IMG/VR virus record: IMGVR_UViG_3300032893_000016
Coordinates: 34,147-98,146 of that record
DNA from: a virus
Length of the DNA stretch: 64,000 bases
Reading direction: 5' to 3' (one strand)
The position numbers were made by a program, and so were the translations under genes. Under the pieces are notes generated by a model. It was not told where the DNA came from and searched no databases. It was given only the letters and a program-made list of their open reading frames with translations. This document shows, in pieces, positions 49,279-51,508 of the stretch. The first letter of the stretch is position 1. Each line of letters begins with the position of its first letter.

Positions 49279-51508
49279 TGGTTCGCTCGCCGGTTCGGTT
49301 CAATTCTGATTTAGTGGTACGCTCTGTGAGTTTGCCTCAATCACGTTGTATGGTACACTCGCCAATCGGTGCTTCAATTGTAAGGCTTGATCCGCTTCTC
49401 CGTTTTGTTTCAATCCAGAAGGATGGTGCTCGCTCTTCAAGATTGTTTCAATTTGACTTACTGGTACTCTCTTGGCAGTTGTTTCAATCTGGTACCTGGT
49501 TCCCTACGGATTATGTTTCAATCGCCATACTGATGGTGCTCTCGCTTTACCTGTTTCAATCATGAAAGCTGGTGCTCTCTTATAGTGTGTTTCCCTGCTG
49601 AGGAGTGGTGCCGGCGTACCGGCCTCAATTATTATAGGTCAATCCGCGGACGTGGTGCGCTTCGGATGTATGTCTCATTCCATCTACTCTGGTACGCTTC
49701 TCGTTGCTGCTTCATTGATTGGGGTGGCACTCTTCTCGGCCATGATTCCATCGGGCTTGTTGGCACTCTCAAATCTTGTAGGTCAATCCTTTTATAAGGT
49801 GCGCTCGAAGATTCTGATTCCCGCGTGTCTACTGGCTCTCTGAAGAAACGTGGGTCAATCATTTTGTTTGGTGCGCTACGAGGTTTTGCTTCGATCATTG
49901 TTGTTGGCGCGCTGAAAGTTGTTGACTCACGTCGAAAACTTGGCGCGCTCAACGAAGATGGTTCAGTCTTTGCAGATGGTACGCTTATCGCATTGCTTCA
50001 AACGTGACCTTGGCGCTCTCTAGTGAATGCTTCCCTTCACAGTCTGGCGGGCTACGCCCACTTACCAACTTTGGGTCAATCATTGTATTTGGCTCACTCC
50101 CGTCTACTGCTTCAATCTGCGAATGTTGGTTCACTTGATGGTGATGCTTCAATCGAGTAACTTGGTACGATCGGAGGAGATGCTTCAATCTGCCTTAATG
50201 GTACTATCAGGTGAAATAGTTTCGATCATTGGTTATGGTACTCTATGTTCACCCGTCTCGTTTTGCTTCATTGGTGCACTCACTTAACTTAAACTCTCTC
50301 AAAGAATGTGGCACGCTGCCTATGCCCGGATCGTTCTAGCGTTATGGTACACGCAGTGTGATATGTCTCGTTCCACGCTAATGATGCGCTGCTCGTGATA
50401 TGCCTCGATCGGAGACGGTGGTGCACTCTGAGGAGAGGTCTCAATTTGGCAGGTTGGTACGCTTTCCAGAAATGCTTCCCTTTCAATCATCGGTGCGCTC
50501 TTCTCGTAGGGGTCATTCTGCGAACTAGGTACTCTCGAGCTTAGTAAATCATTCTACATGCTAGGTGCTCTCGCGGTTCGATGCTTCAATGTTGGGCGTG
50601 GCACACTCGAAGAACCTGCTTCAATCACTTCTTCCGGTACACTAGCACCTGTATCGTTTCACTCGTATTCAGTGGTACTCTCTACATATCAGGGTCAATC
50701 CACAATCTGGTGCGCTGGTGGAAAATGCTTCGCTTCCTTAATTTGGTACTCTTGTAACTTTTGGGTCAATCCGACCTATTGGTGCACTTCCACTTCGTTT
50801 CGCTTCTATGCTCAGGTGCTCTCGCGTCAGTAGGCTCAATCGAAGAGCATGGCCAGCGGGACGCCGGCTCATTTCTTTTGTTTCACTCGGTTTATAGGGT
50901 ACTCTCATATACACCTGATTCAATTGATCCATTGGCACGCTATCCGGATGGATGCTTCAATCAGCCAACTTGGTACAATCGGGGTGTTGTTTCGATCCGC
51001 AATACTGGTACACTCGTATTGCAGTGTCTCGCTGTTCCTTCATGGTACTTCTTCGTCTCACAGGCTCGATCACACACTGCCGGTTCTCTCCCTAAGTTTG
51101 TCTCGATCATAATACTTGGAGCTCTCTTACAATATGTACTCAATCAGTTCATATGGCGCACTCATTCATAATGTTTCATTCAGCAGCCATGGTCCGCTCG
51201 GAATACGTAGATTCAATCCACGACAATGGTACGCTAAAGTTTCAGGTTTCGATCTATAACAATGGTCCACACTCATGTCAAGGAACTCGTTCCAGCGTAT
51301 TGGTGCGCTTCCCAAGGGAGGCTCAATCATTCTGTTGGTACTCTAGGCACATTTGCTTCAATCGCGGTGGATGGTTCACTTCCGCCAATGCTTCAATTAC
51401 TCGATATGGTGCTCTTACGTTCTCTGCTTCAATCATTCGTTTTGGTTCGTTTCTGTGGTATGTTTTCAATCAGGGAGTTTGGTGCTCGCTGTATACACTG
51501 TTTCAATC
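49279..51508 (-). ncRNA. TIGR-like guide RNA array, about 61 units of ~36 nt
   Basis: Plus-strand pattern TGGTRCRCTC-N8-TGYTTCAATC-N8 starting at 49279, 49315, 49351, 49388 ... 51443, 51480; spacers variable; periods of 34-38 nt break any reading frame. Confidence 0.85.

Follow-up and report, generated by a model that had tools for sequence, protein, structure and literature searches.

The right-hand 64 kb of the 98-kb phage record IMGVR_UViG_3300032893_000016 (IMG/VR; positions 34,147 to 98,146, here called the window) contains a dual-repeat TIGR array of ~62 units on the minus strand (49216-51517). Directly downstream of the array, and in the same orientation, lies tasA (48284-49171, minus strand), which encodes a Nop-domain protein of 295 amino acids (aa) that has no nuclease domain. 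In three of the ~62 units, the repeat located between the two spacers carries a short GC-rich hairpin. The locus as a whole is likely to represent a phage dual-repeat TIGR array that acts as minus-strand RNA with a nuclease-free TasA and gives rise to a few loop-extended guides; the three hairpin-bearing units appear to be tolerated and are probably functional. The finding is a small one, three units in one phage and in a known system.

Read on the minus strand, the array consists of two strictly alternating 10-nucleotide (nt) repeats, R1 (consensus G-A-U-Y-G-A-R-N-C-A) and R2 (consensus G-A-G-N-G-Y-A-C-C-A), with ~8-nt spacers between them. It was delineated by its periods, by position-wise conservation, and by the pairing in trans of consecutive R1 copies. 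With R1 as the edge repeat and R2 as the loop repeat, an assignment discussed below, each unit comprises the edge GAUYG^ARNCA (the caret marks the predicted cut), spacer A of 6 to 10 nt, the loop GAGNGYACCA, and spacer B of ~8 nt, mostly exactly 8 nt. The loop repeat is bounded by a box D (xG) and a box C (CCA), with G3 pairing with the first C of the latter; G3 is conserved in 53 of 59 copies, C8 in 57 of 59, and C9 in all 59. In the edge repeat, box C is relaxed to N-C-A, and the N of this motif forms a pair in trans. The final CA is missing from several edge copies (e.g., those at 51292, 51145, and 50300), which still pair in trans with their neighbors. Towards 49216, the array degenerates.

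Edge-to-edge distances are 34 to 38 nt in 58 of 61 cases, and the sole outliers are 47, 44, and 47 nt. Measured from loop to loop on the plus strand, the same three units span 47, 45, and 47 nt. These are the values given in an earlier first-pass annotation of the window, which described them as the only long periods, each with a stem-loop inside the GAG..CCA repeat; remeasurement bears this out. Each long unit has 13 to 15 nt in place of the four bases at the center of the loop repeat, and this segment forms a GC-rich hairpin of 5 to 7 base pairs (bp).

Folding energies of the hairpin cores were calculated from G3 to C8, and each inserted segment was shuffled 20,000 times. The loop repeat with hairpin 1 (49606-49626, minus strand; 21 nt instead of the usual 10) reads GAG-GCCGG-UACG-CCGGC-ACCA, with a core energy of -9.3 kcal/mol on the minus strand and -8.7 kcal/mol on the plus strand (shuffle P = 0.023). 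Its stem is perfectly palindromic and is separated from the G3:C8 pair by a single A. The UACG loop, previously described as being of the UNCG type, is closed by G-C and not by the C-G pair of canonical UNCG tetraloops. The 19-nt loop repeat with hairpin 2 (50045-50063, minus strand), AAG-UGGGC-GUA-GCCCG-CCA, has core energies of -8.5 and -6.1 kcal/mol on the minus and plus strands, respectively (P = 0.0042), and its 6-bp stem includes G3:C8 and one U.G pair. The 21-nt loop repeat with hairpin 3 (50850-50870, minus strand), GAG-CCGGCG-UCC-CGCUGG-CCA, has corresponding energies of -10.6 and -6.6 kcal/mol (P = 0.017) and forms a 7-bp stem that includes G3:C8 and one G.U pair (z = -3.6 in context). 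In hairpins 2 and 3, the stem is unbroken from G3:C8 onwards.

By our own calculation, the Fisher combination of the three shuffle fractions is ~2e-4. GC-rich mini-hairpins are frequent in this genome, at ~3 to 3.6 per kb per strand; what is nonrandom is that the three hairpins coincide exactly with the three lengthened repeats, of which there are no others, and keep the register of G3:C8. Loop repeats alone are affected, with no insertion in an edge or a spacer; the inserts begin directly after G3 and finish at C8 or one base short of it. The inserted sequences are mutually unrelated and share no common motif. No further copies of them are found in the 98-kb genome at up to 2 mismatches, and a mobile mini-palindrome was rejected as their source.

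The assignment of R1 as the edge and of R2 as the loop is well supported by four agreeing lines: homology to known guides, the repeat classes of related arrays, the ends of those arrays, and covariation. It confirms an earlier proposal in which GAG..CCA was the internal repeat and AUUGAAGCA the processing edge. The most telling line is the covariation in trans between consecutive R1 copies. When positions 7 and 8 of one copy are set against positions 4 and 3 of the copy that follows, 108 of 122 combinations are standard pairs (91 Watson-Crick and 17 G.U). The same positions within a single copy form standard pairs in 71 of 122 cases, so that pairing of 3:8 and 4:7 in cis gives no signal, and the reverse direction yields 75 of 122. 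Permuting the order of the repeats 20,000 times gave 70.0 +/- 4.3 pairs, and no permutation reached 108. Pairing between successive edges also explains why the 3' half of R1 had looked variable. Covariation in trans is likewise seen in the edge class of other arrays (30/30 in locus L048, with a z score of 5.3; 20/20 in L114; 26/26 in L026), and the loop class shows none. Unit-by-unit edge covariation thus provides a means, from sequence only, of telling edge from loop and of orienting dual-repeat arrays with variable edges.

The other three lines point the same way. The synthetic tigRNA5 of SpTasH consists of AGCCA, a spacer, AAGACAACCA, a second spacer, and AAGCG (supplement of Faure et al., PMC12045711); its ends indicate that the Sp edge is AAGCG^AGCCA and that the Sp loop is AAGACAACCA. 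The TaTasR edge is UGCG^AGCCA (same supplement). R1 has the same ..YG^AR..CA core as both of these edges; the array of the Salicola phage itself was also read. In the ~185 arrays found next to TasA homologues, there are two repeat classes, GAxYGARxCA and GAGAGxACCA. The former, with variants GAGCGAGCCA, GAUCGAGACA, GAACGAGUCA, GAGUGAACCA, and GAUUGAAACA, corresponds to R1, and its positions 3:8 (G:C, U:A, A:U) and 4:7 (C:G, U:A) covary across loci. Two of these arrays, in L013 and L031, terminate in the 5' half of the edge class (AAACG and GAGGC, respectively), and arrays ending in a half-repeat have been described for edge repeats (Faure et al. 2025, PMC12045711). In the TasR structure, the terminal stem consists of two base pairs and is formed between different edge repeats, and the trans pairs of the window array correspond to this stem.

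Function as minus-strand RNA is probably the right reading of this array. It follows mainly from the co-orientation of array and tas in related loci, from the position of box C at the 3' ends of the repeats, and from the 17 G.U pairs in trans, which would be mismatches on the plus strand and thus orient the RNA. The first-pass annotation had reached the same orientation from the hairpins, which it took as independent evidence. As it reported, two of them (2 and 3) contain G.U pairs that become A/C on the plus strand. However, two such pairs both favoring the minus strand would be expected by chance in ~1 of 4 cases by our estimate, and they are poor evidence if taken alone. Its statement that all three hairpins fold best on the minus strand is true of the cores, where hairpin 1 is nearly strand symmetric, but not of hairpin 1 in its 43-nt context, where the plus strand is favored (-14.4 versus -11.2 kcal/mol for the minus strand). 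Up to position 49171, the genes are nearly all encoded on the minus strand.

TasA resembles the Nop parts of known Tas proteins. A phmmer search with its sequence retrieved the TasR structure 9mty (E value, 2.4e-11) and TasH structures (1.7e-7), in each case with the Nop part only: the matches start at residues 43 to 81 of TasA and cover only residues 123 to 282 of the TasR and TasH proteins. There is no match to any Pfam nuclease family and no HNH or RuvC domain. The AlphaFold model of TasA has a pLDDT of 85.6 and an N terminus composed of long helices. Its ten best fold matches in the PDB are all TasH or TasR complexes (E ~1e-7), followed by IS110-type recombinases. Residues Tyr272 and His279 do not vary among 32 relatives and correspond in the alignment to Y289 and H296, the catalytic pair of SpTasH that reportedly cleaves the edge repeat. 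The C-terminal loop of the Nop domain, which carries this Y/H dyad, is flexible in the model, as it is in the literature. The locus thus belongs to the TIGR-TasA systems, RNA-guided DNA-binding systems first reported in 2025 (Faure et al.; PMC12045711), and is carried by a phage. The open reading frames next to tasA are not conserved in related loci, and nothing points to a partner of the tasParB type.

By analogy with these systems, TasA dimers would bind the minus-strand precursor and the Tyr272/His279 dyad would cut every edge after G5 (GAUYG^ARNCA), a cut site taken from the sequence of the SpTasH tigRNA. Each released guide would then consist of 5'-ARNCA, spacer A, GAGNGYACCA, spacer B, and GAUYG-3', with its ends joined by the two base pairs between successive edges. 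In the three hairpin units, the four unpaired bases at the loop tip would give way to a hairpin that stacks on G3:C8 between box D and box C and is directed away from the spacers, leaving the box motifs, the spacer lengths, and the terminal stem unaffected. In TasR, the loop repeat is capped at its center by a tetraloop-like structure to which the protein makes no sequence-specific contacts (Faure et al.), and a helix stacked at this point should keep the spacer geometry unchanged.

The predicted mature guides of hairpin units 1, 2, and 3 (49593-49639, 50033-50076, and 50837-50883, all on the minus strand) would be 47, 44, and 47 nt long, compared to ~36 nt for the other units, and would be expected to load into TasA and to bind DNA via both spacers. 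Their ends, set by cuts after G5 of the flanking edges, would be joined by two C:G pairs in each of units 1 and 2 and by two A:U pairs in unit 3. All three units retain box D, box C, spacers of 7 to 8 nt, and both terminal pairs. The predicted guides fold with the hairpin in all three cases, and the terminal stem also forms in units 1 and 2. A CC..GG terminal stem, the GC-richest type, is present in 4 of 61 units, including hairpin units 1 and 2 (post hoc hypergeometric P ~0.01). The three units suggest that the tip of the loop repeat tolerates insertions; the extended guides might work as well as normal ones or might be merely tolerated.

A number of points weigh against functional loop-extended guides. 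The search for further loop hairpins, suggested by the first-pass annotation, covered 80 viral, 80 metagenome, and 16 genome loci (~185 related arrays with ~2,400 units) and revealed no second hairpin stacked on G3:C8, with the caveat that the parser requires recognizable flanking repeats and may miss some cases. Given this absence in relatives, neutral or mildly harmful accidents would fit as well as function. The array is more irregular than those of its relatives, both in the length of spacer A and in the edges without the final CA, and the constraint on it may accordingly be relaxed. The phage's own 98 kb contain no target of a spacer pair: composite 16-bp targets, sought in both geometries and with both pairings after masking of the array, gave no matches at 0 to 1 mismatches, and the counts at 2 mismatches equaled those of shuffled spacer pairings. 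Finally, Xu et al. describe dual-repeat guides as having a fixed fold of 36 nt; they also state that in dual-repeat Tas proteins the Y/H loop fills the space taken up by the extended stems of stem-loop systems, in which a shortened Y/H region makes room for them. Given the symmetry of the dimer, a stem on the loop side could collide with the Y/H loop of the second protomer.

These points lend weight to a serious rival, a palindrome-generating accident with little effect on fitness. Here the hairpin units would be dead or near-neutral mutational scars, left by a replication error (snap-back or template switching) that struck the loop repeat on three occasions; guides made from these units would be unused or poor and would persist since ~59 other units remain. 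A mechanism of this kind accounts for the hairpin shape without selection, in a genome where GC-rich mini-hairpins are common, and it agrees with the other signs of drift in the array as well as with the lack of a further case among its relatives. It does not account for the choice of the loop repeat in all three insertions, for their precise fit between G3 and C8, or for the intact boxes, spacers, and terminal pairs around them. Nor does it readily explain why the three sequences are unrelated to one another and to the rest of the genome and why two of the hairpins have a G.U pair, and not a mismatch, on the RNA strand. On balance, the scar explanation appears unlikely.

The opposite possibility, that the loop tip is a natural insertion site to which TasA has adapted, is rather improbable. 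It is based on a 13-aa insert in TasA, PPDPNKPGDKGKG (residues 122 to 134; window positions 48770-48808), which is rich in Pro, Lys, and Gly and is absent in 147 of 162 compared homologues. This basic insert may contact or accommodate the hairpin, in which case the 44- to 47-nt guides would be fully functional. The insert is disordered in the model and maps between residues corresponding to K167 and S168 of SpTasH; K167 is listed among the residues around the tigRNA ends (PMC13421893). Its proximity to the RNA ends, combined with the symmetry of the dimer, would bring it near the loop tip, and its co-occurrence with the loop hairpins may be more than a coincidence. If so, the hairpin guides would perhaps be more stable or form a distinct class, two of the three having the GC-richest terminal stems, and they would be a present-day transitional form linking the dual-repeat architecture with the loop-hairpin guides known from stem-loop clades. 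About 10 relatives have different inserts in this position, including several rich in Cys (L057, L046, L094, L038), and the insert of L078, APDPTQPAMAGIG, resembles that of the window TasA.

It is very unlikely that the hairpins punctuate the 2.3-kb precursor, as entry or stop sites for host RNases, stabilizers of 3' ends, or pause sites, dividing it into sub-arrays of ~18, 22, 12, and 11 units. The array is indeed unusually long, the hairpins are spread along it, another hairpin is located immediately 5' of the first complete unit, and some related arrays have GC hairpins ahead of them. However, stems of just 5 to 7 bp are too short for RNase III, the hairpins are not followed by a U-run, and none of the three is flagged as terminator-like; moreover, such a role would not require the hairpins to fit precisely between box D and box C or the spacers to either side to be intact. 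A role of the palindromes in DNA or plus-strand RNA, for example as protein-binding sites or structures of antisense transcripts unrelated to the guides, is barely credible. It would suit hairpin 1, a perfect DNA palindrome that in context folds better on the plus strand, but hairpins 2 and 3 are imperfect as DNA and weaker on the plus strand, the region has no plus-strand gene or convincing plus-strand promoter, and the three sequences have no motif in common.

Other long units flagged in the related arrays were rejected as degenerate repeats, array ends, or terminator-like hairpins. Some of these arrays depart from the usual layout in other ways. In L038 (6900-7360), it is the edges, not the loops, that carry 1 to 8 extra bases, located after GAGCG at the predicted cut site (e.g., GAGCG-CGA-AGCCA). 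These extra bases resemble variable linkers, and the TasA of this locus has an insert at the K167-equivalent site. L046 (6860-7500) has 9-nt loop repeats (GAAUGAACA) and a period of 35 nt, and L063 (6890-7700) mixes normal units with much longer stretches that hold extra repeat-like pieces.

The flanks of the window array contain additional structured elements. Just 5' of the first full edge, at 51536-51606 on the minus strand, there are three degenerate loop-like repeats (GUGAACGCCA, GAGCGAACCU, and CCGCGCGCCA). Among them lies a 7-bp hairpin, UGUUGCA-UCCG-UGCAACA (51545-51562, minus strand; -7.6 kcal/mol, z = -2.6), a possible leader element; the arrays of the related loci L102 and L087 likewise have GC hairpins in front of them. 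Another hairpin, UUGCUGCA-AUUU-UGCGGCAA (49170-49192, minus strand), is found directly before the ribosome-binding site and start codon of tasA. A scan of the region for promoters and terminators returned nothing above shuffled sequences, and an Rfam search of positions 48000 to 53000 matched no family. With no terminator between them, tasA may share the transcript of the array. The G+C content of the genome is 57%.

Among known systems, SpTasH of Salicola phage CGphi29 (Faure et al. 2025, PMC12045711; PMC13421893) is the best-defined dual-repeat system with a Y/H dyad, and FpTasA represents the nuclease-free type. The window locus shares with the SpTasH type the 10-nt repeats, 8-nt spacers, and 36-nt period, the Tyr/His dyad, the ..YG^AR..CA edge core with two terminal base pairs, the loop of the form xAG-4 nt-CCA closed by G:C, and the location of the array in a phage, adjoining tas and co-oriented with it. 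It differs in the three units with 19- to 21-nt hairpin loop repeats, in an edge that has drifted to GAUUGAAGCA, with the base at position 8 free to covary with the next edge, and in its ~62 units located upstream of tasA. Unlike SpTasH, the window TasA lacks an HNH domain and has the 13-aa insert at the K167/S168 position. The hairpin units are thus a rare variant of dual-repeat TIGR guides within an already known system and do not constitute a new kind of system.

Stem-loop arrays such as that of PlTasA (Faure et al. 2025; Guan et al. 2026, bioRxiv 10.64898/2026.08.11.744272) have a palindrome in place of the edge, which pairs the 5' and 3' ends of the guide, and their Tas proteins have no Y/H loop. 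In the window, by contrast, the palindrome is inside the loop repeat, and the edges on either side of it are 10-nt copies of the usual kind that pair in trans over 2 bp. The first-pass view that dual-repeat and stem-loop units are mixed in this array is therefore not upheld: the edges are canonical, the Y/H dyad is present, and the hairpin caps the loop repeat, not the guide termini.

The nearest parallel is the secondary hairpin found between the spacers in some stem-loop clades, such as the 5-bp stem of CsTasR guides, which is contacted by a protein insertion (Xu et al.). The hairpin units might represent an evolutionary step towards such loop hairpins. TIGR-Tas systems are under development as compact, PAM-free DNA-targeting tools, for which the loop tip is a possible site for extra RNA, e.g., aptamers or recruitment hairpins. 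The loop-hairpin tigRNAs of the CPR TasR clade (2026, bioRxiv 10.64898/2026.09.09.750476) have, as in the window, a short helix that is stacked within the internal repeat, between its boxes D and C, and thus lies between spacers A and B. In such clades, the helix is present in every unit and is combined with long terminal stems and a dead-RuvC TasR that has a stem-contacting insertion and no Y/H loop, whereas in the window it is found in 3 of ~62 units, with 2-bp dual-repeat termini and the Y/H dyad retained.

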